NCBI GenBank assembly: GCA_000004695.1
Contig: CM000151.3
Coordinates: 6,336,001 to 6,400,000 of the forward strand
Reading direction: 5' to 3'
DNA from: Dictyostelium discoideum
Taxonomy: Eukaryota
Length of the DNA: 64,000 bases
Under the pieces are notes generated by a model. That model had not been told where the DNA came from, searched no databases, and saw nothing but the letters and a program-made list of their open reading frames with translations. Positions 3,087-60,681 of this stretch are shown here, one piece after another. Position 1 is the first letter of the stretch, and each line of letters begins with the position of its first letter. Made by a program: the position numbers and the translations under genes.

Positions 3087-5665
<2,579 letters not shown>

Positions 5666-9318: not shown

Positions 9319-12300
9319 TTATTTTAAACCACCTGAAGTAATAGCAATCCAAATTGGTAATATTGTAGTTTTAAATTTAATTTCAATTTCTACATGAGAA
9401 CCATTAGTTTTCTTATTTGATATAAAAGCTATTTTGTTATTTGAAATTGATACTTCATTTGAAAAGGTTGAACCATTAAATCCACTAGTGTCAAGTAAAA
9501 ATTGATATGAATTACCTTGGTATTCAACTTTGAAATTACATATTGATGTATTAATTGATATTGGGTGAGAAGACTCTACCGAAGTCCAACTTGTTCCAAA
9601 ATTTTTGTGAATATTGAGTTGAGTAGAATGAGATTTAATATTTACTGCATGCATAGCCTTAAAGAAATTAAATGATGGATTTGGTGGATCTCTAAATTTA
9701 ACTAAAGGATGTTTATTGTTAAAGAATAATTCAAAGGTTTTACCACCTTGAGGAGCACCACCAATCTTAATATTGAATAATTCCATACCACCAATCGAGT
9801 ATCTTAAAGCTGGTTCGAATGAATTAACTTTTTCATGACGTGATGTTAAATTTTGAGGTTCAATAAAGAAAAATGGAATACCACTTGGTGATCTAATCTT
9901 TAAAAGTGTTTTACTTGAATCTAATAATTTTGAATAAGATTGAAATGTGAGCTTTGAGCATTTCATTAAATCTAACTTTATTAATCTTAGTTTTGAAATT
10001 GATTCTGAAACAATTAAATTATCAACAAATGGTGGTAATGCTAATTTAACAACCGATGGACATCCTTTATAAAGTTCATTAAAATCTTCTCCTAAGATAC
10101 CACTACAACCACCTAAATCCAATACCTCTAAATCTTTACAAGTTGAAGCAATAAGTTTAACTATTAAATCTGTAAGTGTTGGTATTTCATAAAGTTTTAA
10201 TTTTCTTAACTTTGGAGTGATTAAATCTGATAATACCCATTCATTGATTCCATTTTGATTATTACCAAAATTGAGATAGGTAATATTTGATAGATTAGAT
10301 AAACTTTTCAATTTACTACAATCATTAATTTTTAATTTTCTTGAAATAAATGATTGAATATCTGGTTTAATCTTTGAAAAAACTTCAATACTATTACTAT
10401 TGATATGTTCATCGAAATAAATCTTTTCAACATTTATATTTTCAAAGTAATCTAAATCCTCTACTTCAAATTGAATATTTAAAGGAATTGTAAACTTTTC
10501 TTTTTTAATTGAGTATTTTTCTTCCAATGAATTCTTTACAATTGATCTTAATTTTGGAACAGTTCTAGAGGTTTCAAAAAATATCCATGGACTAAAATCA
10601 ATTAATGGTTTAATTTTATCAATAATTGATTCAATATTTTTACTAATACTAAATGCTTTAGTAATATGTTCTGATACTTTTTCTTTTGAAAAATTTTTAT
10701 TACTACCTTGAGTTACCAATAAAAATAATGAAATACCAATATGAGCTTTTTGATAATTTGGATCAATTTTAAATATATTACTAAATTAAAAAAAATGAAT
10801 TAGTTTTTTATAAAAATAATAATAATAATAATAAAAATAAAAATTAAAATAAAATAATTTACTTACTTATAAGCAGTTAAAACTTTAGAGTAATCAAATT
10901 TTGAATTATATTTATATAAATGATCAAAGAATTTTGCCAAAAGGTAACTTGGATATGCTTTATCTGGTGATTGTTCAATAATTTCATTTAAAACTATTTC
11001 AATTTCTTCAATTTCTTTAGGAAGAATAAATCCTTCAAACTTTAAATGTGATAGAATAGTTTTAACTCTACAAATTTTTAAAAGAAGTACTTGACTTTGA
11101 ACAACTCCAATTGTATCAAATGTAGAGAGTTTTTTGTTTGCCAACACATAGTAGAGTTGTTTCTTTGTATAATCTTGTGAAGTTTTTGCCAACAAAGTTA
11201 AAACTTTAGCCAATTGGATAACAATTTGGAAATTATTATTCATGGTGAGAATTGATTGCTCTAAACGTTCCCTTGAAATTGTTAATAGTCTATGTTTACT
11301 TGTATCACTTAAACCTGAAGCCATAGATTTATAATATAAACTCATACCATCTGCATAATCAATAACATTTAATCTAGTTGAAAGAGTTTTAATCTCTTTA
11401 ATATCTGTATCTACAAATACGAATGAATCAGAATTATTAAATTGAGAAATTGCAATTTTACTAATTACCAAACCAATTGATTTACAAAATTTTTTTAAAA
11501 TCATTTCTCTGGTTGGAAGAGTTGTCAATAAATTTTTAATAATTTCTTGTGGAGTAACTGGTAATTTTGGTGAATTTTCATTTAACTCTGGCTCTTCTTT
11601 TTCGGTATTTACATTATTGAAAATATTTTGAAATTTCTTTTCCATCTTTTCTAATATAATTTTATTCCAAATATATTCAGTTTTATCTTTATATTCATCA
11701 AATAATAAATTTAAAAATTTTAATAATAAACCTAAATTGAAATAATAATAATATTAATATTAATAATAATAAAATAAAGAGAATTAATAAATTTTATTAT
11801 ATAATAATTTAAAAATTATTAATTATTATTATGTTTTTTTTTTACTTACTTCTATATGGATAATCAGATGGTAAATGAATATTTCTCATTTCTCTTCTTA
11901 ATAATTCTCTTGCTAAACTTTTAAGTGTTCTAACTATTGCTTCAATTGTAAAGAATCTTTTATAACCAATACTTGTACAATGACTTGCAACTTCACCAAT
12001 ATATCTAATATTAATACCTTCAGCATGAAGTAATTTTGAAACATCTGTAATCTTGTCAGAAATATTTGATAGTAAATCTTGTAAAAAATTTGTTTTTAAA
12101 CCAATTTCATCTCTAGTTTGAATATCTTTAGAGAATTTTGGAATGATATTATTCATTAAATCATCATATGCCTCTTGAACTTCCACATTATGTTTATTTG
12201 AATCAATTGTTGACATTGGCGAAAATGCATCACTACATAATGGTTTTTGATATTTTCTAACCAATTCTAGTCTTAATAGTTTATAAAGATATGAACCACG

Positions 12301-20312: not shown

Positions 20313-21627
20313 GTAAATGAAATTAATAATGTAAATAGTAAAAAAAGAAATATAGATTCACTTTATAAAGATGACTCTGAAACAACCACCACCACAACAA
20401 CAACAAATAATGAAGAAAATAATACAAAAATTGGAAAGATTGGAGATATTTGTAATGTTTGTACTATAGAGAAATCAAAATATAAATGTCCAGGATGTTC
20501 AATTTTATTTTGTTCATTAATATGTTCAAATAAACATAAAATCGATACAAAATGTACAGGTGTTAGAAAAGATAATCATTTTATACCTTTAAATAAATTT
20601 AAAGATTCTGATATTGTAAATGGTAAATATAGATATAAATTTAAATTTTAAAAATTCTATTAAAATATATTAATGATATTATTTTATTTTTTTTAATTCA
20701 TTCCTATAGATTTTAACTTTTTAGATAAAATTAATAGAGTAAATGAAAATGGTAAAGCAATTGTTGCAAATTCTTTCATTAAATTTAAATCTAAACATTT
20801 ACAACAATTTGCATTTAGAAAAAATATAAACCTTTATATCATGCCAAAAGAAATGTCAAGACATAAAGAAAATACAACTTCTTTTAAAAAACCGTTTGTA
20901 TTAAATTCACTACAAATATTTATATATATATAAAAAAGTAAACAATCCATTAATTAATTTATTATTTTTTTTTTAAAAATTTAGTAAAAATTTATTACTT
21001 TGGAGAATTGAATGGTTATTTTTAGATGATGATTTTAAATGGTCAGATCCATCAATTCAAGATTCAATGATAATGAATGACCTTTTACAAAAACATATTG
21101 ATGATCCTGTAAATATATATAACCTTAAAAATAATTTAAAAAAATTAAATTCAAATAGAGATTATAGAAATCCAAATGAAAATTTCACTGTTTTAATGAA
21201 AAGAGAAAGAGATTCTGTATGTATTATTTAATTTAATTTAATTTAATTTAATTTAATTTATTTAAAATACTTAAATATTAATTTTATAAAAATAAAAAAT
21301 AAAAAATAGAAAAATCAATACTATAGATTTGATTTAACAAAAACATTTGATGAGAATTTTCAATTTAAAGAGATAATAGAATTTCCAACATTACTAGTAT
21401 TTACAAATAATTCAAAAAATTTATCAAATTATAATATTATTTCATTGGAAGATCAATCAATCATTGAAAAACAACAACTAGAAATTATAAAAGCAAACCT
21501 TTCTTTTAAAACTAAATATGACCCAAATTTAACAAATACTGAGGACCAATCAAAAAGATTTAAACCTAATAATAACAATAATAATAATAAAAATGGTAAT
21601 AAAAAAAATGATAGATTTAAAAATAAA

Positions 21628-27147: not shown

Positions 27148-28450
27148 ACTACTTAAATTGGAAGAGGGTTCGGAACTGCTGGGGTTTGCCAGGCTTTGTT
27201 GAATTTGTATTTGTGAAGATCTTGATTGGTGTTTTTTAGACATATCAAAATACAACAGAACTGAGAGAATCTTCCCCAATCTCATAGGAATAATAGCACA
27301 CCAATTATGGAAGATAATCTGTCACAAATTGTTCAACACTGATGAAAGCAAACCAGAGCCAAAATTCGAACAAAAGGTCATAGAAACAGAATTACTAAAT
27401 CTCATAAAAAAAAAATTATAAAAAAACACCAATCAAGATCTTCACAAATACAAATTCAAAGCCTGGCAAACCCCAGCAGTTCCGAACCCTTGGTATCCAT
27501 TGACCATCTGTGGATTTTGATGAATGATAATTTGTTAACTGTTGATATGATGGTTTTTTCAATATCTAGGATATCTTGGCATAGAGTGAAGAGGTGAGAA
27601 TAAGGGTCTCTGAATAGATGGCCACAGATCTTGCATCTGGTGTCTCTTTCGTGGTTGATACCTGGAAGTGATCTTGAGAAGAATCTGAAGAGGGTGTTTC
27701 TACCTTTTTGGTGAGAAATGCTGTTGATGTTTATGAATACTTTGGGTATTGCTGTGTTGTATCTCACCGCCCATAACTTCTGCCATTCTGTTCTTCTTGG
27801 TGTTGGGTGTCTGTCTTTGATCATGAGTTCGTAGATTTCTTTCAGTTTTAGTGGTTCGTCATTGTCGTTTCTTATACAGTCTGGAAGTTCATTTATCTTT
27901 GGATGGTTTTGGTAAAATTTGACTCTGAATACACCCCAGTGTCTGCACATATCGTTGAGGGTTGAAGTGTGGGCTTTTTTTCTACTTAATTGCTCCATGT
28001 ACCATTCTTGTAAAGTATTGTTGTTGTTGTTGTAGTTGTTATGGAGTAGCCTGTTCATGTACCAGATTTTGAATGCTATATGTCTTAGTTCTATATCCCA
28101 TAATTTTATGCCTCCTTCTTTCCAATCTGCATATGCTCTGTCTATTTTCATCATAGTTTTGTATTTTCTCTCTTCTGTATATGTATTCTTAACTGAGGAG
28201 AATAAGAACCATCTGGTCATGTTATTGATTTCCTCAATTTGTTCTTCATTTAGATTATCCATGTATTGATGGTATGTTAATTTGGATAGAACGTATGTTT
28301 TGAGAATTGTCATCTTTGCCTTCATCGTTATTGCTTGTGATTTCCATTTGATAAGATTGTTTTTCATTTCTTGGATTAAAGTGTTGTATTTTGAATTTAA
28401 ACCTGTTTTGGTGAAATTGAGGCCAAGATATAAAAAACTTTTAAAATAAT
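27107..28450 (-). mobile_element. TRE3-like non-LTR retrotransposon, 5'-truncated fragment with a rearranged 3' end; oligo(A) tail seen as poly(T) at 27107..27146
   Basis: A minus-strand ORF carries the ORF2 C-terminal CCHC-like motif CKICGHLFRDPYSHLFTLC. It is homologous to the plus-strand fragment at 43479..44045. The poly(T) run marks the 3' end. The fragment lies about 70 bp downstream of tRNA-Gln on the same strand. Confidence 0.6.
27456..28367 (-). pseudogene. TRE3-like ORF2 C-terminal fragment (303 aa). The reading frame runs into an inverted-repeat copy and terminates.
   Basis: ..HQKGRNTLFRFFSRSLPGINHERDTRCKICGHLFRDPYSHLFTLCQDIL..HRWSMDTKGS is followed by ELLGFARL*, which is encoded by the 77-bp inverted repeat. 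The expected continuation (LDISK..IGIIAHQLWKIICHKLF) is found on the opposite strand at 27238..27420. Confidence 0.55.
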
Positions 28451-28591: not shown

Positions 28592-28898
28592 TTATGATTT
28601 TCAATATTTTAAAAATAAGACATCGTTTAATTTTCACAAAAAAACAAACAACAACAACAATCTCTTTTTTTGATTATTTCATTTTTCATATAAAAAAGAC
28701 TTAAAAAACAAATAAATAAATAAATAAACTATTTTAAAAAGCCATCTTTTTACTTTATTGTAATTTATTATTTGTTTCGTTTTGAGAATTTTGCGTAGCA
28801 AAATTTTCAAAAAAAAAGCAAAAAATAATCAGATCGAAAAAAACAAACAACAACAACAATCTCTTTTTTTGATTATTTCATTTTTCATATAAAAAAGA

Positions 28899-28978
<80 letters not shown>

Positions 28979-29053
28979 GGAACCAAGTTAATTAGAAAAT
29001 TTCCAGATTTTTAACTTTTTAAAGAAAAATAAAAAAGATAGAAAGAAAATAAA

Positions 29054-30388
29054 ATGAAAATCACAAACAACACCACAAATATTAAGCAACACAAATGCCT
29101 ACAAAAAATAAGCGAAATTGTGGATAAAACTCAATTAAAAAAAAAACAATTCAAATACGTCATAAACATCAATCACGAACCAGACGATAAAATAAAAAAA
29201 GATTTAGAAAAAAGTTTGGACAAAAAAGATGTTTTAATCAAAAGTAATAATACATTCAAAATTCTCACAGACAGTATTAGTACAGTAATCTATTTTGTAA
29301 ATATGTTTGATGCAGAATTAAAAGGACAATTTATAACCACTATAAGACCAAAAAATATGTATACAGATTTTGATTGGTATAAATCACTCACAGAAATAGA
29401 ATGGGTAATAGAAAATGAAGGATGTAAACTAATTAAATCAGAAATTAAAGGCGAAACTCTAATTATCAAAACAGTGAAAAGAGTCGTAGAAGAATTTGAC
29501 ACTATCATTGAACTAGACAATCTAACATTAATTGGACACTCCAACAAAGGATGGAGAGATCAAACCTCATTACCAGAAAATCAAGAAGAAAACAAAAATA
29601 AAAAACAATCAGATGAACAACAACCACAATCTACATCAGAACAAATACCAAAACAAGGAAAAAGAACAATCATTATCCCACCAATCACATCCTCATCTAA
29701 TGATAAAACATTTATGGCCCTAGATGATACAGCTCAAAAGGTAATAGAAGCATCACTAGAAAACGTAGATGAACTAACAAGAATAGAGAATGAGATCAAT
29801 ACACAATCGATAAACAATCAAGAAATTAAAACAAAATCAGAAAAACCTATCGAACCACCATCTCCATACAATACACCAATAAAACAACACGGCGAAACAA
29901 AGGGACTAACAACGGAAGAAAAACTTAGAGAGGCAAATGATATCTTCGACTTCACCAGCCCAAACACTGATGCAATAAGAAAAATAGAATTCCCACTTTC
30001 AATCCCTTCAAATCAATGGTTCTTCTCCTCTCCAATAAAACATATCATGAGTTTCAGCCCAACCTATGGTACACCATCGAAAATTATCGATTCACCAAGT
30101 AAATTGTTAAACACACCAAAAAAGAAACAACAAGACAAAACAAACAAGACCAACAAAACACCAGTCAAACCAAAATTGGGTGAATATGGACAAAAAAGCA
30201 TAAAAACAAAAATGGATGAAGATATAGACAACTTCAACAAGGAAATTCTAAAACAAATCAATAAATCAAAAAACCCCACAAACACACAAGACCAACAACA
30301 CAACGAACAAAGTAAAGATCAGTTAGAAGACAAAATAAACCAGAAACTTCAAAAGGTAGATAAAAATCTACCCCAAATAAAACTATAA
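29054..30388 (+). CDS. TRE5-like retrotransposon ORF1 (444 aa)
   Basis: The domain order is shared with TRE5-A ORF1 (48158..49522). NNTFKILTDSISTVIYFVNMFDAELKG..IRPKNMYTDFDWYKS aligns with KNKFKILTDCRTQVIKYSNVFNGVLKG..IKPKKIFKTFNWEKS. A basic, Q/K-rich C-terminal half follows. Confidence 0.55.
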   Translation: MKITNNTTNIKQHKCLQKISEIVDKTQLKKKQFKYVININHEPDDKIKKDLEKSLDKKDVLIKSNNTFKILTDSISTVIYFVNMFDAELKGQFITTIRPKNMYTDFDWYKSLTEIEWVIENEGCKLIKSEIKGETLIIKTVKRVVEEFDTIIELDNLTLIGHSNKGWRDQTSLPENQEENKNKKQSDEQQPQSTSEQIPKQGKRTIIIPPITSSSNDKTFMALDDTAQKVIEASLENVDELTRIENEINTQSINNQEIKTKSEKPIEPPSPYNTPIKQHGETKGLTTEEKLREANDIFDFTSPNTDAIRKIEFPLSIPSNQWFFSSPIKHIMSFSPTYGTPSKIIDSPSKLLNTPKKKQQDKTNKTNKTPVKPKLGEYGQKSIKTKMDEDIDNFNKEILKQINKSKNPTNTQDQQHNEQSKDQLEDKINQKLQKVDKNLPQIKL

Positions 30389-30742: not shown

Positions 30743-31654
30743 CAAGTTAATCAGAAAAATAAAAAAGATAGAAAGAAAATAAAATGAAAATCACAAACAA
30801 CACCACAAATATTAAGCAACACAAATGCCTACAAAAAATAAGCGAAATTGTGGATAAAACTCAATTAAAAAAAAAACAATTCAAATACGTCATAAACTTC
30901 AATCACGAACCAGACGATAAAATAAAAAAAGATTTAGAAAAAAGTTTGGACAAAAAAGATGTTTTAATCAAAAAGACCCTGTAAAAAAAAAAAAAAAATA
31001 AAATGAGATCTAGCATCTCAAGGAGAAGCAAATAATAATTGCGTTATCCAATTCAAAAAAAAAAAAATCGTTTAATTTTCAAATTTTTTAAAATAAATTT
31101 ATAGAATTGATTGGAATTATTTGAATATGCAGAAGTAAAATTTAAAAGAGACTTCAATCTTAGACCCAAATAAAAGGTTGTACAATATATCTATTGTACT
31201 TTTTTCATGATGATATTTAATAGTTAAACCGGTTTATATATTAAGTATTAAGAAATTTTTTTTTTATTTATTTTTTTATTTTTTTTGGGTTGAATAAAAA
31301 TAAAAGTTCTTTTGGTAATTAAAAAGGTTATTAATAGTCTTAATTATTGAATTTTTTAATGTTGGGCAAATTTTAAATATTTTACAAAAAAAAAAAATTT
31401 AAAATATTTTTTTTTTTTTTTTAAAAAACTTTTCTTTGATTTGTTAAATTATTAGAAATTTTTTGATTTGTTTGATAATATTTTTTTTTTTTTTTTTTTT
31501 AAAAAATAGATATTTTAACAAATCAAAAAAAATCTCGCAAAAGAAGCCCAAATTTTAAAGATAAAAAAAAAAAAAAAAAATTTATTTTTAAAATTTTTTT
31601 TTTTTTTTTTATTTTGTAAAAAATTCTAAAAATAAATAGAAATATATAAATAGA

Positions 31655-42352: not shown

Positions 42353-42456
42353 GATTAATAATTTTATTAAACTCTTTTTTTTATTCTTATTTTTTTATTA
42401 TTATTATTATTATATTATTATTATTATTATATTATTATTATTATTATTATTGTTAT

Positions 42457-42494
<38 letters not shown>

Positions 42495-43259
42495 AGTAGT
42501 TGGTGTTATATGAGCAGTATGGTCTGAAGTGTTCCGGGATGTTTATGGTCATGAGTTTCGAGTTCCAGTTGTAGTGTTATCGTTGAATTTTATTTGGTTT
42601 CTTCTGTACCATATCGATTCCATAATGGCTCCTATAAGATTTGATGAGAATGGTGTGAGTAGTTTTCCGAGAACTTTTTCGCTCCATGGACCGCGGTAAG
42701 TGTTGTTAGAGTCTTTACAGACCTTTTGATAGATTGAGTCGATATCCTGTTTTATTGATTTGCATTCGAAGAAGATGTGCATAGACGACTCTTCTTCTTT
42801 ACATGAGTGGCAATTCTCCCCATGGTGTTTTGGAAGTGCCTTGAGTAGATACCTCCATGCTAAGTCTCTTCCTTTGATAGTTGTGATTGATCTGGCTTCT
42901 CTAAATGGTAGAATTGGGTGATTAATGTTCTTTTGAATCAGTTTTTGACCTGTTGTTGGCTGGTGTTTGTTCCATCCCTTGTATTTGATATCCATCATGT
43001 TTCTATAGATTACTTTTAATTTTTGTTTGTTTTTGTATTTGGGTTTGACTTGGTTTAGTTTGAGAGTTATTCGCTCTCTTGGGTGGTGCAACAACTTCCA
43101 GGCTTTCCAGCATTTGATGTGAATCCTTGATAGTGAGTTTTCTTTTTCCGACTTCCAGACTTCCATATGTGGAGGGCAGTTCTGGTCGTCTTTTTCTCTG
43201 AAGTATTGTTCGTATATCCATGCTTTCTGGGCATTGGATCTGGTTGCCATATTCCAGAG
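42353..43259 (-). mobile_element. TRE5-A copy, 5'-truncated within ORF2, with an internal deletion of about 185 bp near the ORF2 3' end. Poly(T) at 42455..42490 is the oligo(A) tail. Upstream (AAT/TAA)n C-module tail at 42361..42454.
   Basis: The fragment is more than 95% identical to the 3' region of the full-length TRE5-A at 44455..45560. The track ORF 42549..43250 is near-identical to ORF2 residues MATRSNAQKAWIYEQY..IWYRRNQIKFNDNTT. The 185 bp between ccagttgtg| and |gtagtgttatcg in the full copy are missing here. Homology ends at ..ccatattccagag (43259), 45 bp before tRNA-Ser. Confidence 0.7.
42549..43250 (-). pseudogene. TRE5-A ORF2 C-terminal fragment (233 aa)
   Basis: Direct protein identity to the C-terminal region of the 1182-aa ORF2 at 44617..48165. 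A different C-terminus, ..NDNTTTGTRNS*, is created by the internal deletion. Confidence 0.7.
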
Positions 43260-43304: not shown

Positions 43305-43386
43305 GACATCGTAGCAAAGTGGTCTAATGCGTCTGACTAGAAATCAGATCCCTTCGGGGGCGCAGGTTCGAACCCTGCCGATGTCG
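43305..43386 (+). tRNA. tRNA-Ser (anticodon AGA), 82 nt with a long variable arm
   Basis: The sequence is GACATCGTAGCAAAGTGGTCTAATGCGTCTGACTAGAAATCAGATCCCTTCGGGGGCGCAGGTTCGAACCCTGCCGATGTCG. The 7-bp acceptor stem is GACATCG/CGATGTC. The anticodon stem is TCTGA/TCAGA with loop CTAGAAA. The long variable arm TCCCTTCGGGGGC is typical of class II tRNAs. The T-arm is GCAGG-TTCGAAC-CCTGC. Confidence 0.8.
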
Positions 43387-43478
43387 ACTATATCTTTTAT
43401 CCTTAATCCAATTTTTTTAATCAAGATATTGTTAATACCGCTTTTAGGTAAAAAAAAAAAAAATCAAGATATTGTTAC

Positions 43479-44044
43479 ATACCATCCATCTTCCAACATA
43501 TCAACCACATATCACATCAAAAAGGTAGAAATACACTATTCAGATTTTTCTCAAGGTCACTTCCTGGAATCAACTATGAACGTAACGTACCATGCAAAAT
43601 CTGTAACAATATAATCCGTGACCCATACACTCACCTTTTTATAGACTGTATGCAAGTAAAAGAAATAGAAAACATAATAATTTCAACATTCAACAATCTC
43701 TCATTATTCAAGATCAGAAATTGGGATCTCAATTCACTAGATATTAGCAAAACAAATAAAAAAGAAAGAATCTACCCAAATTTAATCGGCATAATTATAC
43801 ATCAACTATGGAGAATAATTTGTCACAAACTATTCAATCAAGACGAATCTAAATCTCCACCCTCATTTGATCCAACATTAATTGAAAAAGAACTAACCAA
43901 CTTAATTAAAATAGAGAAATTCATTTTAATAAAGAAGATCGAAAGGAATGAAACAATATACAAATTAAATAACAGAGACCAATTAATAATCAACTTCAAC
44001 ACATCATGGCATAACCCGAACACTCCAAACCCAATTCCATTATA

Positions 44045-44080
<36 letters not shown>

Positions 44081-44085
44081 AAGTA
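43479..44085 (+). mobile_element. TRE3-like non-LTR retrotransposon, 5'-truncated copy ending in oligo(A) at 44048..44083, about 90 bp downstream of tRNA-Ser
   Basis: It encodes the ORF2 C-terminus ..HQKGRNTLFRFFSRSLPGINYERNVPCKICNNIIRDPYTHLFIDC..LIGIIIHQLWRIICHKLFNQDESK..NPIPL*. This is homologous to the minus-strand fragment at 27456..28367 and to the inverted piece at 27238..27420. A poly(A) tail is present. A short direct repeat, atcaagatattgtta, flanks the upstream side. Confidence 0.6.
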
Positions 44086-44186
44086 GTAGTAATCATAATA
44101 TAACCAAAAATATCAACATATAACAATATAAAAATTTAAAAATTTAAAAATCTAAAAATTTAAAAATGTAATAAAATATAACAATA

Positions 44187-44283
44187 TACCGCTTTTAGGT
44201 AAAAAAAAAAAAAATCAAGATATTGTTACACCGCTTTTAGGTAAAAAAAAAAAATAATCAAGATATTGTTTACACCGCTTTTA

Positions 44284-44327
<44 letters not shown>

Positions 44328-44365
44328 ACCGCTTTTAGGTAAAAAAAAAAATCAAGATATTGTTC
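44187..44365 (+). repeat. Reiterated mini-insertion array: four tandem units of [..caccgcttttaggt + (A)11-45 + (a)tcaagatattgtt(t)aca]. One further unit lies at 43419..43478 immediately after the tRNA-Ser terminator.
   Basis: Direct reading. The 15-nt tag ataccgcttttaggt, followed by poly(A) and then the same 14-bp direct repeat atcaagatattgtt, occurs 5 times. The first copy of the direct repeat lies directly after the tRNA-Ser T-run (ttttttt aatcaagatattgtta). Confidence 0.6.
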
Positions 44366-44425
44366 CTTTTTTTTTTTTTTTAATAACATCACTCAATTTG
44401 AGTGTGTTCTAGGAGAGTTTATTTG

Positions 44426-44459
<34 letters not shown>

Positions 44460-44582
44460 CTTTTTTTCTTGTTATTCTTATTTTTTTTTTTTTTATTATT
44501 ATTATATTATTATTATTATTATTATATTATTATTATTATATTATTATTATTATTATATTATTATTATTATTATTATTGTTAT

Positions 44583-44616
<34 letters not shown>

Positions 44617-44621
<5 letters not shown>

Positions 44622-47600
44622 AGTAGTTGGTGTTATATGAGCAGTATGGTATGAAGTGTTCCGGGATTTTTATGGTCATGAGTTTCGAGTTCCAGTTGTG
44701 GCTGAATTTTTCGAGTCTTCTTTTTATTGATGCGGTCCGATTGATTGACTCTCGGTTATCAGTGCATCTTAGTTCTTGACGTAGTTGTTTTTCTACTATC
44801 TTTCTTGTTCTATCCCATTCGGCATCTCTCGCTTTTTTTATTTTATGAATTATTTGGTTCTCTGTTATTATTGTAGTGTTATCGTTGAATTTTATTTGAT
44901 TTCTTCTGTACCATATCGATTCCATAATGGCTCCTATCAGATTTGATGAGAATGGTGTGAGTAGTTTTCCGAGAACTTTTTCGCTCCATGGACCGTGGTA
45001 AGTGTTGTTGGAGTCTTTACAGACCTTTTGATAGATTGAGTCGATATTCTGTTTTATTGATTTGCATTCGAAGAAGATGTGCATAGACGATTCTTCTTCT
45101 TTACATGAGTGGCAATTCTCCCCATGGTGTTTTGGAAGTGCCTTGAGTAGATATCTCCATGCTAAGTCTCTTCCTTTGATAGTTGTGATTGATCTGGCTT
45201 CTCTAAATGGTAGAATTGGGTGATTAATGTTCTTTTGAATCAGTTTTTGACCTGTTGTTGGCTGGTGTTTGTTCCATCCCTTGTATTTGATATCCATCAT
45301 GTTTCTATAGATTACTTTTAATTTTTGTTTGTTTTCGTATTTGGGTTTGACTTGGTTTAGTTTGAGAGTTATTCGCTCTCTTGGGTGGTGCAACAACTTC
45401 CAGGCTTTCCAGCATTTGATGTGAATCCTTGATAGTGAGTTTTCTTTTTCCGACTTCCAGACTTCCATATGTGGAGGGCAGTTCTGGTCGTCTTTTTCTC
45501 TGAGGTATTGTTCGTATATCCATGCTTTCTGGGCATTGGATCTGGTTGCCATATTCCAGAGTTCCAGGCCTCCAATTTCATAGTCTCTTCTGCTCCTTTC
45601 TTTTGAGATAGCCCACCTGTCCCCTTTGAATAACATGTTGGCATTAACGTTCTCCAGTTTCTTTATGTCATTTATTTCGTTGATGTATAGTTGGAATGTT
45701 AGTTGGGACAGCAGGTATGATTTGAGGATTGTGATTCTACCTTTTAGCGTTGATGACACGCTCGAATAGCATTTTGTGAGGTTTTCCAGTTTGTTCACCG
45801 TATCATCTACTTTGCTTATTACACCTTTGCGGTTGAAGAAAAAGCCAAGATATCTTTCTTCTTCTTTCGCCCCAATTGTCTTATATTTGGTCTTTATCTT
45901 TGGGTTTTTAGTGATGCACACACATTTATTATCGTTTATTTTTGCTGCTGTGGCTTGGCAAAATTTTATAACTTTCATATCCATTTTATCTGCGTCATCT
46001 ATGTTACTGGCTAGTGTGACTGTGTCGTCTGCATATTGTCCAATCTTCATCGAATTGTTCTGATTGAGTTTTATGCCTATTATGGTATTGTCTTTTCTTA
46101 TTGATGTTGATAAGCATTCACATACTATAGCGAAGAGAGTTGGTGAAATTGGGTCGCCCTGTTTTGTACCTCTTCCTGCTCTGAAGGATTCAGAGAGTTG
46201 TCCATTTACCATGACCCTTATGTTGGTGTTCGTTAACATGCTTAGTATTGTGTTTGTTATTTTCCGAGGGAACTTTAGATGGTTTAGAGTCCTTATTAAC
46301 GCTTTATGAGATATTGAATCGAAGGCTTTTTCGAAGTCATAAAAGGTGATTATCGTGTTTCTATCACTCTTTTCCATTGCTAAATCCAAAGCTATAATGT
46401 TGTTGTGGAGTAGCCTTCCTGGTATAAAACCGTTCTGGTACTTTGAGATTATGTTTGGCAGGATTTTTAGTATTCTATTGTTGATTATTTTTGAGTAGAT
46501 TTTGTAGTCTACGTTGAGTAACGTTATTGGTCTTCTGTTTGAGATTTCCAAGACATCCCCTTTACCTTTGTATATTGATGTAAGGATACCGTTCTTGAAT
46601 TCTGTTGGAATTTCATTGTTTAAAAAGAAGTTGAATAGTTCTGTGAGGATTGGAATTAGTTTGTGTTGGTGGATTTTATAGAATGAAGATGTTATTCCAT
46701 CTTCTCCTGGTGATTTACCTTCTGCTATCTTTTCTATTGCTAGCTTAACCTCATATTCTTCGATTCTGTCTTCCATCTCTGTTAATTTTTTTTTATCTAT
46801 TGGTGGGTTCCAGGTGCTTAGAAGTTCTGTATGTGTTTCTTGGTCGCATTCTTTCTCTTTGAAGAGTGTCTCGTAATATTTTCTGAAGCAATCTGTTATT
46901 TCTTTTTGTTCTGTTTCGATTTCTCCATTGGATGGGTTCTTTATTCTGTGAATCTGGGAGCTCGAGTCTCTTTTTTTAAGAATAGATGTAAGGAGATTTG
47001 ATGCTATTTCTTTATTGTTGATGTAGTTGATTGAGCTTTTGATCATTCTGTCTATTCTTTCTTCTTCTTGAAGTATTGTTATTTCGTTCGATATTGTTTC
47101 TTTTTCATATTTGTTTTTTGTTTTTGTGTGTTCATTTGCTAGATTTGATAGCGTTTTTTTTCTCTCTAGTATTCTTTTCTTTTCTGTTGTAATGCATTGT
47201 TTTTTTATTTTTTTTTTGAACTTAATCCAGTATTCCGTTATGTTAAGGTTTTTTCTTTTGGTTTCCTGGTAGTGGTCGATTATTTTTTCTATCTTTTTTA
47301 TTGTTTTATCTTCTTTAATTATTATTGAGTTCATTTTCCATAGGGGTGATTTGTATATTTTTGTGAAATTTGGTATTTTGAAATCCATCACTACTATGTT
47401 ATGGTCTGATTTGTTTATTTTATCTATTATCTTGTACGAGTGATTGAGTTGGTGCATCTTTGTTGATAAGAATGTTCTATCGATTAGTTTATCTTTGAAG
47501 GTTGTTTTAGTTGTTGAATTTGGTAGTATTTCGGTGAGTCCTACTTCCATCATTAGGAATTCTATTGTTTCATTTTCTGTGAATTTTCTCTTATCGGATG

Positions 47601-48048
47601 ATCCATCTTTGAACTTGATTTTTGCATATTTGTTGATGTTAAAGTCACCAGTAACTATGTCTGCCTGTTCTAGATCTTCAAGGGAAATATTGTTTGAAAA
47701 CCATCCTTTTCTTCTGTCATATGAGGCTGGTGCATAGATGCAAATTATGTTGATTTCCATATTGTTTAGAATTGCAGTAAATTTTAAGATTCTGCCTTCT
47801 TTTTCTTCCAAGTTTTTAATTTCTATTTGTTCTAGGTGATTTATTGCCATTACTCCTTTTCCTCTTGCTTCTTTTCCTTTTCCTCCTGTTGAGTAATGGT
47901 TTTTGATTTGCGCTAGATTTTGATCCTTTTTTAGATTTGTTTCTGTTAGTATTGATATATCAGGTTTTATTAGGTTAATTGTATTTTTTGTCTGATTCAT
48001 GCTTTTGATTGTTGAGCAACCTTGGCAATTCCAGGTCATTATTTTTAT

Positions 48049-48051
<3 letters not shown>
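44617..48051 (-). CDS. TRE5-A ORF2: APE endonuclease, reverse transcriptase and C-terminal Cys-His motif. The ATG is at 48051..48049; the track ORF extends to 48165 through a poly-K reading of the A-tract.
   Basis: The N-terminus MIKIMTWNCQGCSTIKS.. is an endonuclease domain. The RT motifs ..ITFYDFEKAFDSISH.. and ..QYADDTVTLA.. (YxDD) are present. The C-terminus has the CCHC-like motif HSCKEEESSMHIFFECK. Total 1182 aa as listed in the track. Confidence 0.75.
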
Positions 48052-48098
<47 letters not shown>

Positions 48099-48125
48099 TT
48101 TTTTTTTTTTTTTTTTTTTTTTTTT

Positions 48126-48157
<32 letters not shown>

Positions 48158-48163
<6 letters not shown>

Positions 48164-49522
48164 AAATGAGACAGATGGAAGTATGTCTTGGAGTACTTTG
48201 GGCAATTTGTCTCTTAGTGCTGCTTCCATTAGATCTGATTCTTCCTTTGTTATTTTAGTTGGAGTTTTGTAAGGTGTTGATATTTCTTGGTGATTAGTTG
48301 TTGGGTTTGGAGATGAGTTGGATCTTTTTCTTTTTACTGTCTCTGGGGTTGCTGGAGATTCTGGATTTTGGATAGGTGACATTGTTTGTCTTTTTTTGAT
48401 TGAGGCTAACCTTGGGGTTTCCTTCTTTTTTTGGTTATTTATTTTTTCTTCAAAAATTCTGTTCTCTTCTTCATTTTCGAACATCTTTCTTACCACTTCT
48501 AATGCTTCTTCATCTTCAGTTAACTCCATTTTCCTTTTCTCTTTGCTGTCAACACTATATGTTACTGTTATTGGTGGGACACGAAGTACTTTTCTCTTTT
48601 CAATATTGTTTATTGTGTTTGTCGTTTCTGTCGTTGTGGTTGTTGTAGTTGCTCTAATTGTTGTGGGTTTTTTATTTTCAATTTCGTTTTCCTTTACTTT
48701 TTCGTTTTTGCTCTTGTCTTTGATGTTGTCATTATTGATTTCTTTATTATTTTCTTTTCTGTTTTCTATTTTGTTTTTGTTGTTATTTTTTGATTCGCTA
48801 GTGTTTTTATGATTGGATTCTTCTTTTGATTTTATGTTTATTCTTGTGTTTTCCTTTATCTCGGGATTTGGTAGTTCCGTGATTTTTGAATTTTCTGAGA
48901 TTTCGTCTTCGATTTCCTTATTTGTTTTTCTTTGATTTTTTGTTTCTTCTGTTGTAGTGAGGAATAGTATTGTTATGTGTTTACAATGTATTAGCTGGTC
49001 TTTGTGCTCTGGACTGATAATTGAGTTGAATGAGTGTATTATCAGGTTTTCACCTAAATTATCTAATTTGATTATTTCCAGTCCTTCTTCATGCAATGTT
49101 TTTTCTACTATGTCCATTGATTTTTCCCAGTTGAATGTTTTGAAGATCTTTTTTGGTTTTATTATTGCTCTGTGAACTCCTTTTAGTACTCCGTTGAAAA
49201 CGTTAGAGTACTTGATTACTTGAGTTCTGCAGTCAGTTAGGATTTTGAATTTATTCTTACTTATTATTATCTTATCATCTCCTTGTAAATGAATTTCCAA
49301 TTCTGCTTTTAAGTTGTTGGAAATCTCATCTGGGATATTGATCATGAATTTATATTGTTTTAGTTCAATTTGAGTGTGGTATATTGCTTCGCTTATTTTA
49401 TCAAGTGTTCTGTACGTATTTTTTAAATATTTGAACTTTGTTCTGAGTTCATTTGATTTCTTGATTTTATCTGCCAATGTTTCTGTTGATTCTGTCATTA
49501 TTGTATTTGCCAATTTATTCAT
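48158..49522 (-). CDS. TRE5-A ORF1 (454 aa)
   Basis: A complete ORF. It overlaps the track ORF2 start by 8 nt and is followed by a T-rich stretch (A-rich on the element strand) of about 105 nt at 48052..48157. Confidence 0.7.
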
Positions 49523-49599
49523 TTCTTTTTTTTCTTTAAAATCTTTATTCGACTTTAAAAATTTAAAATTCTGGAAATTCCCTGAAAGAATGTTTTCGG

Positions 49600-49670
<71 letters not shown>

Positions 49671-49674
<4 letters not shown>

Positions 49675-50928
49675 TCTTTTTTTTATATGAAAAATGAAAT
49701 AATCAAATAAAAAAAGTGTTGTTGTTGATGTTTTTTCTCTTACTGATTATTTTTTCCTTTTTTTTTCAATTTTGCTTCGCAAAATTTTCAAAAAAAAGAA
49801 AAAAATAAATTACAATAAAATAAAGAAATAAAGTAGTTTATTCTAAGTGTATTTTATTTTATTTTTTTTAAGTCTTTTTTTTATATGAAAAATGAAATAA
49901 TCAAATAAAAAAAGTGTTGTTGTTGATGTTTTTTCTCTTACTGATTATTTTTTCCTTTTTTTTTCAATTTTGCTTCGCAAAATTTTCAAAAAAAAGAAAA
50001 AAATAAATTACAATAAAATAAAGAAATAAAGTAGTTTATTCTAAGTGTATTTTATTTTATTTTTTTTAAGTCTTTTTTTTATATGAAAAATGAAATAATC
50101 AAATAAAAAAAGTGTTGTTGTTGATGTTTTTTCTCTTACTGATTATTTTTTCCTTTTTTTTTCAATTTTGCTTCGCAAAATTTTCAAAAAAAAGAAAAAA
50201 ATAAATTACAATAAAATAAAGAAATAAAGTAGTTTATTCTAAGTGTATTTTATTTTATTTTTTTTAAGTCTTTTTTTTATATGAAAAATGAAATAATCAA
50301 ATAAAAAAAGTGTTGTTGTTGATGTTTTTTCTCTTACTGATTATTTTTTCCTTTTTTTTTCAATTTTGCTTCGCAAAATTTTCAAAAAAAAGAAAAAAAT
50401 AAATTACAATAAAATAAAGAAATAAAGTAGTTTATTCTAAGTGTATTTTATTTTATTTTTTTTAAGTCTTTTTTTTATATGAAAAATGAAATAATCAAAT
50501 AAAAAAAGTGTTGTTGTTGATGTTTTTTCTCTTACTGATTATTTTTTCCTTTTTTTTTCAATTTTGCTTCGCAAAATTTTCAAAAAAAAGAAAAAAATAA
50601 ATTACAATAAAATAAAGAAATAAAGTAGTTTATTCTAAGTGTATTTTATTTTATTTTTTTTAAGTCTTTTTTTTATATGAAAAATGAAATAATCAAATAA
50701 AAAAAGTGTTGTTGTTGATGTTTTTTCTCTTACTGATTATTTTTTCCTTTTTTTTTCAATTTTGCTTCGCAAAATTTTCAAAAAAAAGAAAAAAATAAAT
50801 TACAATAAAATAAAGAAATAAAGTAGTTTATTCTAAGTGTATTTTATTTTATTTTTTTTAAGTCTTTTTTTTATATGAAAAATGAAATAATCAAATAAAA
50901 AAAGTGTTGTTGTTGATGTTTTTCCTCT
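49671..50928 (-). repeat. TRE5-A A-module tandem array: 6 complete 198-bp units plus one 70-bp partial unit (about 6.35 copies)
   Basis: The unit start taagtctttttttt recurs at 49671, 49869, 50067, 50265, 50463, 50661 and 50859. Units are nearly identical. The last unit diverges after gatgtttttcctctt at about 50928. Confidence 0.85.
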
Positions 50929-50976
50929 TCTATTGTTCCTTAATAAATTTGTAATATGAGTTATTTTTTCATCAAA

Positions 50977-51050
50977 GGGACTATAGTTTAGTTGGATATA
51001 ACGACCGGCTACGAACCGGTAGGTCTCAGGTTCGACCCCTGATGGTCTCG
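50977..51050 (+). tRNA. tRNA-Arg (anticodon ACG)
   Basis: The sequence is GGGACTATAGTTTAGTTGGATATAACGACCGGCTACGAACCGGTAGGTCTCAGGTTCGACCCCTGATGGTCTCG. The acceptor stem GGGACTA/TGGTCTC has 2 G-U pairs. The anticodon stem is ACCGG/CCGGT with loop CTACGAA. The T-arm is TCAGG-TTCGACC-CCTGA. Confidence 0.7.
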
Positions 51051-60247: not shown

Positions 60248-60681
60248 ATAAACTTCTTCTGAGTGGTTTGTAAAAAGACGGTTTATTGGTCTATTTTTAG
60301 CTACTATATAAAACAAATAAATATTATTCAACAAATAATATAATATATTATTTGAATAAAATATTAAAAAATATTAAAAAACATAAAAAAAAAAAAACAT
60401 AAAAAAAAAAAAAAAATAAGACGAACGTTAACAACTGATCTTTTTTTTTTTTTCATAATTTTTTTTTTATTTTTTATTTTTTTTTTGTGTTTTAGAAAAT
60501 ATCTTTTTTTTTTTTTTTTTACCCATCCCTTTCTCAGAAAATAACTTTTTTAAACCTTTTTGTTTTTAAATCAATGCTATCCCAAAAAAAAAAAAAAAAA
60601 AAATAATATATTATTTTCTCTTTTTTTTTTTTAAATTTAATAATATATTTAATAATTTAAAAATTTTAATTAATATAAATA

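Follow-up and report, generated by a model that had tools for sequence, protein, structure and literature searches.

Stacked 3′-terminal stubs of a TRE3-type retrotransposon beside a tRNA-Ser gene of Dictyostelium discoideum: a probable record of serial insertion at one host site

Introduction

How did five exact copies of a short tag, CCGCTTTTAGGT, each with an oligo(A) run behind it, come to lie interspersed with five exact copies of a second short sequence, ATCAAGATATTGTT, just downstream of a single tRNA-Ser gene? The question is raised by a stretch of 64,000 nucleotides (nt) of Dictyostelium discoideum DNA (positions 6,336,001 to 6,400,000 of the forward strand of contig CM000151.3, GenBank assembly GCA_000004695.1), which as a whole is called the window here. 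A preliminary description of the window, made from its sequence, had proposed repeated target-primed reverse transcription (TPRT) at one hotspot associated with RNA polymerase III (pol III), each event leaving the end of an element, its tail and a regenerated target-site duplication (TSD), or else a minisatellite grown by unequal exchange from one such insertion.

TRE3 retrotransposons integrate 40-150 bp downstream of tRNA genes and share their orientation, TRE5 elements integrate 44-54 bp upstream in the opposite orientation, and the position of a TRE is set by the pol III/TFIIIC complex (PMC5911963). For TRE5-A, independent integrations at one identical position and frequent 5′ truncation have been described (Siol et al. 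2011, PMC3159450). Our analysis suggests, with a probability that we put at about 0.65, that the array is explained by serial TPRT at one host site beside tRNA-Ser, four events being the most parsimonious number.

Results

All copies of the tag and of the second sequence, hereafter the target, are confined to 43420-44364 of the window, which is AT-rich and carries the AX4 allele of DDB_G0276207 (exact product of the open reading frame (ORF) on record; AX4 protein of 1186 amino acids (aa)). The five tags start at 43438, 44189, 44231, 44275 and 44329 and the five targets at 43420, 43463, 44214, 44257 and 44351, and neither sequence has a further exact copy in the 64 kb. With up to two mismatches allowed, the tag had 6 matches in the window against 1.3 expected, a number reached by none of 100 shuffles. 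The A-runs behind the tags measure, in order, 14, 14, 12, 40 and 11 nt. With the target copies numbered T1 to T5 and the inserted units U0 to U4, the locus reads as follows.

43305-43386, + strand: tRNA-Ser(AGA) gene (ARAGORN; Rfam tRNA, 61.5 bits), internal B box GGTTCGAACCC at 43365-43375.
43387-43418, + strand: tRNA trailer, ending in the T7 run at 43412-43418; native left flank of the target, its start common to the empty alleles of two wild isolates (L005, L013).
43419-43433, + strand: T1, tRNA-proximal host target copy AATCAAGATATTGTT; related motif TCAGATATTCTT in the empty spacer of L005.
43435-43461, + strand: U0, 15-nt stub ATACCGCTTTTAGGT plus oligo(A); A14 at 43450-43463, its final two A common to T2.
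43462-43476, + strand: T2, target copy and left TSD of the 736-bp TRE3-type copy (sequence repeat).
43478-44213, + strand: U1, 5′-truncated TRE3-type non-long-terminal-repeat retrotransposon of 736 bp (open frame, homology, layout).
About 43482 to the stop at 44043-44045, + strand: in-frame C-terminus of U1 ORF2 (open frame).
44047-44079, + strand: internal A33 of U1 (sequence).
44080-44200, + strand: 3′ untranslated region (3′UTR) of U1, 121 nt, ending ATACCGCTTTTAGGT (...AACAATATACCGCTTTTAGGT) (sequence).
44201-44214, + strand: tail A-run of U1, its last A's common to T3.
44213-44227, + strand: T3, target copy and right TSD of U1 (sequence repeat).
44228-44254, + strand: U2, stub ACACCGCTTTTAGGT (C variant) plus A12 (sequence).
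44255-44270, + strand: T4, 16-nt target copy TAATCAAGATATTGTT with one extra native T of the left flank (sequence).
44271-44326, + strand: U3, 16-nt stub TACACCGCTTTTAGGT (C variant) plus A40 (A33 in L007, see below), no target copy behind.
44327-44349, + strand: U4, stub CACCGCTTTTAGGT plus oligo(A); A11 at 44341-44351, its last A's common to T5.
44350-44366, + strand: T5 with the native CC, the original context on the right; the 3′ TSD copy TATTGTTCC (44358-44366) of a TRE5-type element overlaps it.
44367-50930, - strand: full-length TRE5-type element (ORFs, RVT_1, Tandem Repeats Finder (TRF), TSD).
50977-51050, + strand: tRNA-Arg(ACG) (tRNA searches), 81-84 bp after tRNA-Ser in the empty alleles.

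Each stub measures 14-16 nt. ATACCGC... is the reading of the first stub, and a T-to-C variant, (T)ACACCGC..., that of the last three; U0 and U1 carry ...ATACCGC and U2 to U4 carry ...ACACCGC. Substitutions within tags or target cores number zero, and among the target copies only the two junctions of T4 differ; in the native flank, T1 alone has a T before it. At the boundary of U3 and U4 (unit 44273-44326) there is no target copy, and A40 directly meets the next tag. An independent assembly from Nanopore and Illumina reads, GCA_054883475.1 (L007; probably AX2-214 of bioRxiv 10.1101/2025.08.01.668227), has the five tags, the five targets and every junction nucleotide identical, the only differences being in two long homopolymers (A33 to A27 and A40 to A33), and the appearance of the same array in an independent long-read assembly rules out an assembly artefact. 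The number of units is equal in the window and in L007, a weak comparison between two closely related laboratory strains, and two wild isolates are empty. The reiterated tag and target units first described after tRNA-Ser are thus borne out, with five exact copies of each. The count of four more units about 100 bp beyond the TRE3 copy has to be lowered to three, one of which is without a target copy, and the tag at 44189 is the 3′ end of the TRE3-type copy itself.

The origin of the tag follows from the layout of U1. The preliminary description had ended its TRE3-like copy at the A33 run and could not match the tag to TRE3 3′ ends. The run is internal, as it is in five other TRE3-type copies (a window copy at tRNA-Gln on the minus strand, L002 and L004 from D. 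dimigraforme, L003 and L014 from D. citrinum), which consist of the ORF2 stop, an A-run of about 30, an AT-rich 3′UTR of about 110-140 nt ending ...AGGT, a tail of A11-23 and a 13-16-bp TSD. The alignment of 3′ ends took in the tRNA-Gln copy, L002, L003 and L004 together with the tRNA-Ser copy, and L014 was inspected separately; both TRE5-type copies of the window likewise carry an internal A33/34 directly behind ORF2. Because the run is internal in the five other copies, U1 runs on to the tag, and the tag is the 3′ terminus of the locus's own TRE3-type copy; it was the setting of the end of U1 at A33 that made the following 108 bp or so and the tag appear orphaned. An internal run of about 30 A behind a TRE ORF2 is therefore an annotation pitfall, orphaning the true 3′UTR when it is mistaken for a tail. 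Positions 43435-43479 are identical to 44186-44230, and the U0 stub is the final 15 nt of the TRE3-type copy.

U1 is flanked by a perfect TSD, ATCAAGATATTGTTA(CA), of 15-17 bp (T2/T3), has a tail of A12-14 and retains about 188 in-frame codons of the ORF2 C-terminus, including a CxxC...HxxxxC motif; its 5′ truncation leaves it without APE and reverse transcriptase (RT), and a Pfam search with the ORF, limited to these last 188 or so codons, gave no match. The U1 ORF shares 61% identity (E=2e-36) with the TRE3-type copy at tRNA-Gln, 58% with a TRE3-like protein of D. dimigraforme (L002, where no tRNA was called) and 49% with the D. citrinum copy downstream of tRNA-Lys (L003), against only 26% with the corresponding zinc-finger region of the window's TRE5-type ORF2. 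All units lie on the + strand, as does tRNA-Ser, with the target about 32 to 46-47 nt past the 3′ end of the tRNA. Judged by its downstream position, shared orientation, oligo(A) tail, TSD and an ORF2 nearer to TRE3 than to TRE5, U1 is of the TRE3 type. A homolog search with its ORF2 C-terminus returned 5 sister-species proteins only, none of them of U1's subfamily; L014, the closest partial match, was considered as a partner of the same subfamily and proved to be of the tRNA-Gln type. Exact-protein look-ups with the TRE3 ORF (131 aa), the ORF spanning tRNA-Ser and U0 (95 aa) and the TRE5 ORF1 gave no match, and a metagenome scan for ACCGCTTTTAGGTAAAAAAAA gave 0 matches. If the tag is the terminus of a subfamily, the 3′ ends of other copies should read ...AACAAT[A/T][T/C]ACCGCTTTTAGGT(A)n between unrelated flanks.

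The direct repeat (AATCAAGATATTGTT) is host DNA. In the wild D. discoideum isolates L005 and L013 the spacer between tRNA-Ser and tRNA-Arg measures 81 bp and 84 bp, contains no insertion and carries related native motifs (TCAGATATTCTT and CCAGATTTCTT), and removal of the TRE5-type element and of the interval from T1 to T5 from the window leaves a spacer of 86 bp. Since the repeat is host DNA, the array is not a minisatellite internal to an element, and the case named beforehand as fatal to serial insertion, in which tag and repeat both belong to the terminal tandem repeat of one element, does not apply: the tag is an element terminus, and the repeat belongs to the host, as the empty alleles of L005 and L013 show. 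The tRNA-Ser/tRNA-Arg site is accordingly polymorphic, filled in the AX4/AX2-type laboratory lineage and empty in the two wild isolates.

Each empty spacer has a short duplication of its own exactly at the hotspot, with no insert: L005 (21226-21255) has TTCAGATATTC in about 2.7 tandem copies and L013 (about 21210-21245) has TTCCAGATTTC in 2 tandem copies, which could reflect simple slippage or could be footprints of staggered nicking without cDNA insertion. In D. cf. discoideum (L006, 21268-21900), what follows the orthologous tRNA-Ser is unrelated in sequence and may be another element, and no tRNA-Arg lies within 2.3 kb of it; the spacer has had a different history in that lineage.

Given a host target and a TRE3-type terminus, at least three TPRT events at the same target are needed, for U0, for U1 and for the founder of the C variant, because exchange between target copies can turn neither a long copy into a stub nor the T variant into the C variant; the number is most simply four. 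We propose that the ancestral tRNA-Ser/tRNA-Arg pair stood about 86 bp apart, with AATCAAGATATTGTT as host sequence between, and that the pol III complex on the tRNA gene would set the position of TRE3-type TPRT, each event duplicating a 15-17-bp target. Such a duplication restores a tRNA-proximal target copy at the identical distance from the tRNA, so that the same site can be reused, and each event would have used one bottom-strand nick position (±1 nt), at 31-32 nt beyond tRNA-Ser. The units would then have been added oldest first, each event entering the tRNA-proximal target copy to the left of its predecessor. Event 1 would have left a double stub, TACACCGCTTTTAGGT-A40 plus CACCGCTTTTAGGT-An, joined by a template jump or by an event without a TSD; event 2 the stub ACACCGCTTTTAGGT-A12, from a nick one nt further upstream; event 3 the 722-nt 5′-truncated copy with ORF2 C-terminus, internal A-run and whole 3′UTR; and event 4 the stub ATACCGCTTTTAGGT-A12. 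The stubs would come from TPRT whose reverse transcription stopped after 14-16 nt of the 3′UTR. The TRE5-type insertion 46 bp upstream of tRNA-Arg would be a separate event, its TSD overlapping the same host sequence.

When four insertions at the leftmost target copy were simulated (TSDs of 15, 16, 17 and 16 nt, zero filler, nicks offset from the end of the tRNA by 32, 31, 32 and 32 nt), all 980 nt of 43387-44366 were rebuilt exactly. The odd nucleotides of T4 fit TPRT without mutation, its left T being native flank and its right T element-templated (...AAT-ATACC) in a 16-nt stub, and the A behind T1 to T3 would under the four-event model be the first base of U2, carried in later TSDs. A search for ordinary microhomology between target end and element at the 5′ junctions found none that was convincing. 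The sequences show directly how the array is built, that the repeat comes from the host, that the tag is the terminus of the element and that filled and empty alleles coexist in the species; inferred are the order and number of the events, the origin of the double unit U3-U4, the cause of early termination and the existence of a source element of the C variant. A derivation of U0 and U2 from a duplicated U1, in which the interval between the ATACC repeats of 43479 and 44186 is deleted, was rejected; it predicts ACATACCGC, one step off both observed junctions, and needs more steps than direct insertion.

At three further loci a TRE copy has a TSD-flanked micro-insertion beside it. In D. dimigraforme, L002 has at 3999-4050 (listed also as 3930-4050) a TSD-flanked 12-nt stub, GACCAAGGTTAT, plus A14, representing the end of a neighbouring TRE5-like element, and in L004 (10405-10448) two copies of CCTTTAT(T/A)ATAATGG enclose AG plus A12, directly 5′ to a TRE3 copy that lies downstream of tRNA-Trp and is without a matching third target at its 3′ end. 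In D. citrinum, L003 has at 11197-11246 (also given as 11197-11262) the 15-mer TGGATTTCCAGTAAT, A18 and the same 15-mer again, about 30 bp beyond the TRE3 copy downstream of tRNA-Lys. A scan for such units over about 68 kb, covering the empty-allele loci L005 and L013 and sister-species L006, found none. The three loci give no more than a hint that abortive TPRT regularly leaves stubs behind, and it is conceivable, if rather doubtful, that stubs of this sort, with 0-16 nt, oligo(A) and a TSD, form a systematic class of unrecognised footprints at Dictyostelium tRNA genes. Within the window, 60494-60547 (- strand) reads AAGTTATTTTCT plus GAGAAAGGGATGGGT plus A17 plus AAGATATTTTCT, a putative micro-insertion with a 12-nt TSD and 1 mismatch; the repeat is low in complexity, no tRNA gene lies nearby, and the resemblance may be chance.

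Discussion

What the analysis upholds of the earlier proposal is a pol III-associated hotspot, units made of a 3′-terminal stub, oligo(A) and a regenerated TSD, and the need for more than one TPRT event at the same position. Several observations nevertheless weigh against four separate insertions, and some of them point toward a history with fewer TPRT events (the long copy, a T stub and a C stub). In that history, unequal sister-chromatid exchange or slippage during replication, acting between the target or tag repeats, made three copies of a C-variant unit of 42-54 bp (stub, oligo(A) and target), with later small mutations and the loss of one target copy. The T-to-C variant is common to U2, U3 and U4, as is the near-equal length of 14-16 nt, and one duplicated founder stub would give both. 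TRF scores the array as a 42-44-bp tandem repeat (2.6-3.3 copies, 75-94% match), and unstable tandem repeats abound in AT-rich Dictyostelium DNA. The junction of U3 and U4 without a target copy suits slippage in the register of the tag, while serial insertion has to add an assumption there (template jump, TSD-less event or target loss). U0 and U1 both have A14, which hints at copying, a weak sign since most tails are 11-16 nt. Apart from amplification, the target's start, 32 nt past the tRNA, falls at the short end of the 40-150 bp window in the literature; no second copy of U1's TRE3 subfamily was retrieved, so that the C-variant source element is an extrapolation; the survey of other loci took in just four of the TRE3 type, three of which had a micro-insertion, and on reversed sequences the scan for such units gave many low-complexity matches, a background that leaves claims of genome-wide frequency unjustified; and the simulation has many free parameters, which makes its exact fit a consistency check and no proof. 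Amplification does not escape same-site insertion, at least three such events being needed there too, and so differs from serial insertion in degree only. The tags and target cores are free of substitutions, the target differences are confined to the junctions of T4, as a shifted nick and a 16-nt templated stub predict, and the unit number is the same in two laboratory-strain genomes that were maintained and assembled separately. Unequal exchange, one of the two origins first suggested, could thus have produced the three C-variant stubs and cannot have yielded the whole array, and we consider a history in which it gave rise to those three stubs the main rival, plausible though less likely.

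Another history would be a single complex TPRT event, in which one ribonucleoprotein underwent repeated abortive initiation and template jumps between TRE3 RNAs. The target-less tandem of U3 and U4 does resemble a jump from one RNA to the poly(A) of another, the R2 reverse transcriptase is documented to jump end to end between templates (cited in PMC3159450), and in L004 as in the window a stub stands directly 5′ of a longer copy at the same target. Template jumps add no target copies, however, and the four internal copies each need their own staggered pair of nicks; the T and C variants of the tag imply that the template RNAs differed, and the left boundary of the TSD varies by one nt among units. 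We therefore regard a single event as highly improbable. Hardly any weight is left for the notion that tag and direct repeat together are the element's own terminal tandem repeat, or that the array is an artefact. The tag is truly part of the element's 3′ end, but the repeat, as native trailer sequence, stands before the first insertion and has relatives in element-free empty alleles, the five other TRE3-type copies are without such terminal repeats, and the array is reproduced in the independent long-read assembly.

The near-constant length of the stubs calls for comment. The target's last 8 nt, ATATTGTT (e.g. 43426-43433), have an exact reverse complement in the element, the 8-mer AACAATAT (44180-44187) directly 5′ of the 13-nt tag; this 8-mer is present again at 44122-44129. 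Of 20,000 random 15-mers from the window, only 2 matched at the position next to the tag over 8 nt or more; the test was post hoc, and the L002 stub has no such complementarity. It is conceivable, if rather doubtful, that the target itself sets the length of 14-16 nt, the displaced top strand pairing with TRE3 RNA and stalling the reverse transcriptase; such pairing would place the 3′ end of the target where a template switch could complete the micro-insertion.

The locus is an extreme outcome of known parts (TRE3/TRE5 targeting, TPRT, 5′ truncation and TSDs) and no new system. With TRE3 elements (TRE3-A to -D; Tdd-3/RED lineage) it shares the position downstream of a tRNA, the orientation of that tRNA, oligo(A), a 15-bp TSD and 5′ truncation, as well as the homologous C-terminal zinc-finger region of ORF2; unlike the usual TRE3, four of its five units keep 14-16 nt only, one nick is reused within ±1 nt, and the distance is 32 nt. 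Position-specific, pol III-directed TPRT is likewise a feature of TRE5-A, for which experiments are reported to have given independent hits on one position as well as deletions at the 5′ end (PMC3159450); there the events took place in separate cells or molecules and were neither stacked with regenerated TSDs nor cut to about 15 nt.

In mammalian L1, reverse transcription that stops early leaves behind a short piece of the 3′ end with poly(A) and a TSD, and the extremely 5′-truncated L1 insertions resemble our stubs in this; they have no fixed target and no pile-up, whereas the truncation point at the locus is near constant. Repeated use of a target by R1/R2 in rDNA, by Zepp and by telomeric elements gives head-to-tail series of often truncated copies. 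These elements recognise a DNA sequence or the tail of a prior copy, whereas here the tRNA gene would act as the ruler, and unlike the R1/R2 and Zepp series the units at the locus are separated by duplicated host target copies. In the accessible literature we found no description of stacked 14-16-nt stubs with regenerated targets, and nothing specific on abortive or micro-insertions at Dictyostelium tRNA genes, in a search that the primary TRE3 papers lay outside.

The general picture of TRE function is left unchanged by the locus. What it would add is a natural record in which, at one tRNA gene, a TRE3-type element cuts the same phosphodiester bond (±1 nt) repeatedly, in contrast with the broad 40-150 bp window of the TRE3 family. 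It suggests that very early termination of TPRT may leave recognisable stubs that repeat annotation misses, and the filled or empty state of the tRNA-Ser/tRNA-Arg site could mark recent TRE activity.

Additional observations

The element at 44367-50930 (- strand) has ORF2 at 44617-48165 and ORF1 at 48158-49522, both intact, an A15 tail at 44367-44381, and in ORF2 RVT_1 (5e-37) and a weak Exo_endo_phos match; its TSD, TATTGTTCC, stands at 44358-44366 and 50931-50939, and its 5′ end lies 46 bp upstream of tRNA-Arg in the opposite orientation. By its position, orientation, ORF2 with APE and RT, oligo(A) tail and TSD it is classed as TRE5. Its 5′ end, abutting the site 46 bp upstream of tRNA-Arg, is made up of a 198-bp unit repeated 6.4 times at 99% identity (TRF; 49654-50929), and a T69 run (49603-49671) lies between this array and the ORF1 leader. 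Sequence similar to the unit lies upstream of tRNA-Gln (28638-28728 and 28837-28927), and the unit is probably a tandem promoter module of the A-module kind. A second, 5′-truncated TRE5-type copy at 42375-43259 (- strand), 98.7% identical to the full-length one and with an internal deletion of about 171 bp, has its 5′ end 45 bp upstream of tRNA-Ser, so that this gene is flanked by a TRE5 upstream and by the TRE3 array downstream.

The stretch from 28638 to about 31000 (+ strand), upstream of tRNA-Gln, has a pair of A-module-like repeats spaced 199 bp apart, together with an ORF of 444 aa (29054-30388) and a direct repeat of 221 nt whose two copies match perfectly (29023-29243 and 30753-30973). 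This arrangement resembles the published AB-ORF1-BC layout of non-autonomous TRE5-A; comparison of its ORF1 with the ORF1 of the TRE5-type element at tRNA-Arg showed no similarity. Within the TRE3-type copy at tRNA-Gln lies an inverted repeat, perfect over 73 nt (34 + 39 nt abutting), with arms at 27165-27237 and 27421-27490, which encloses an inverted segment, interrupts ORF2 and looks like an inversion or fold-back during or after integration.

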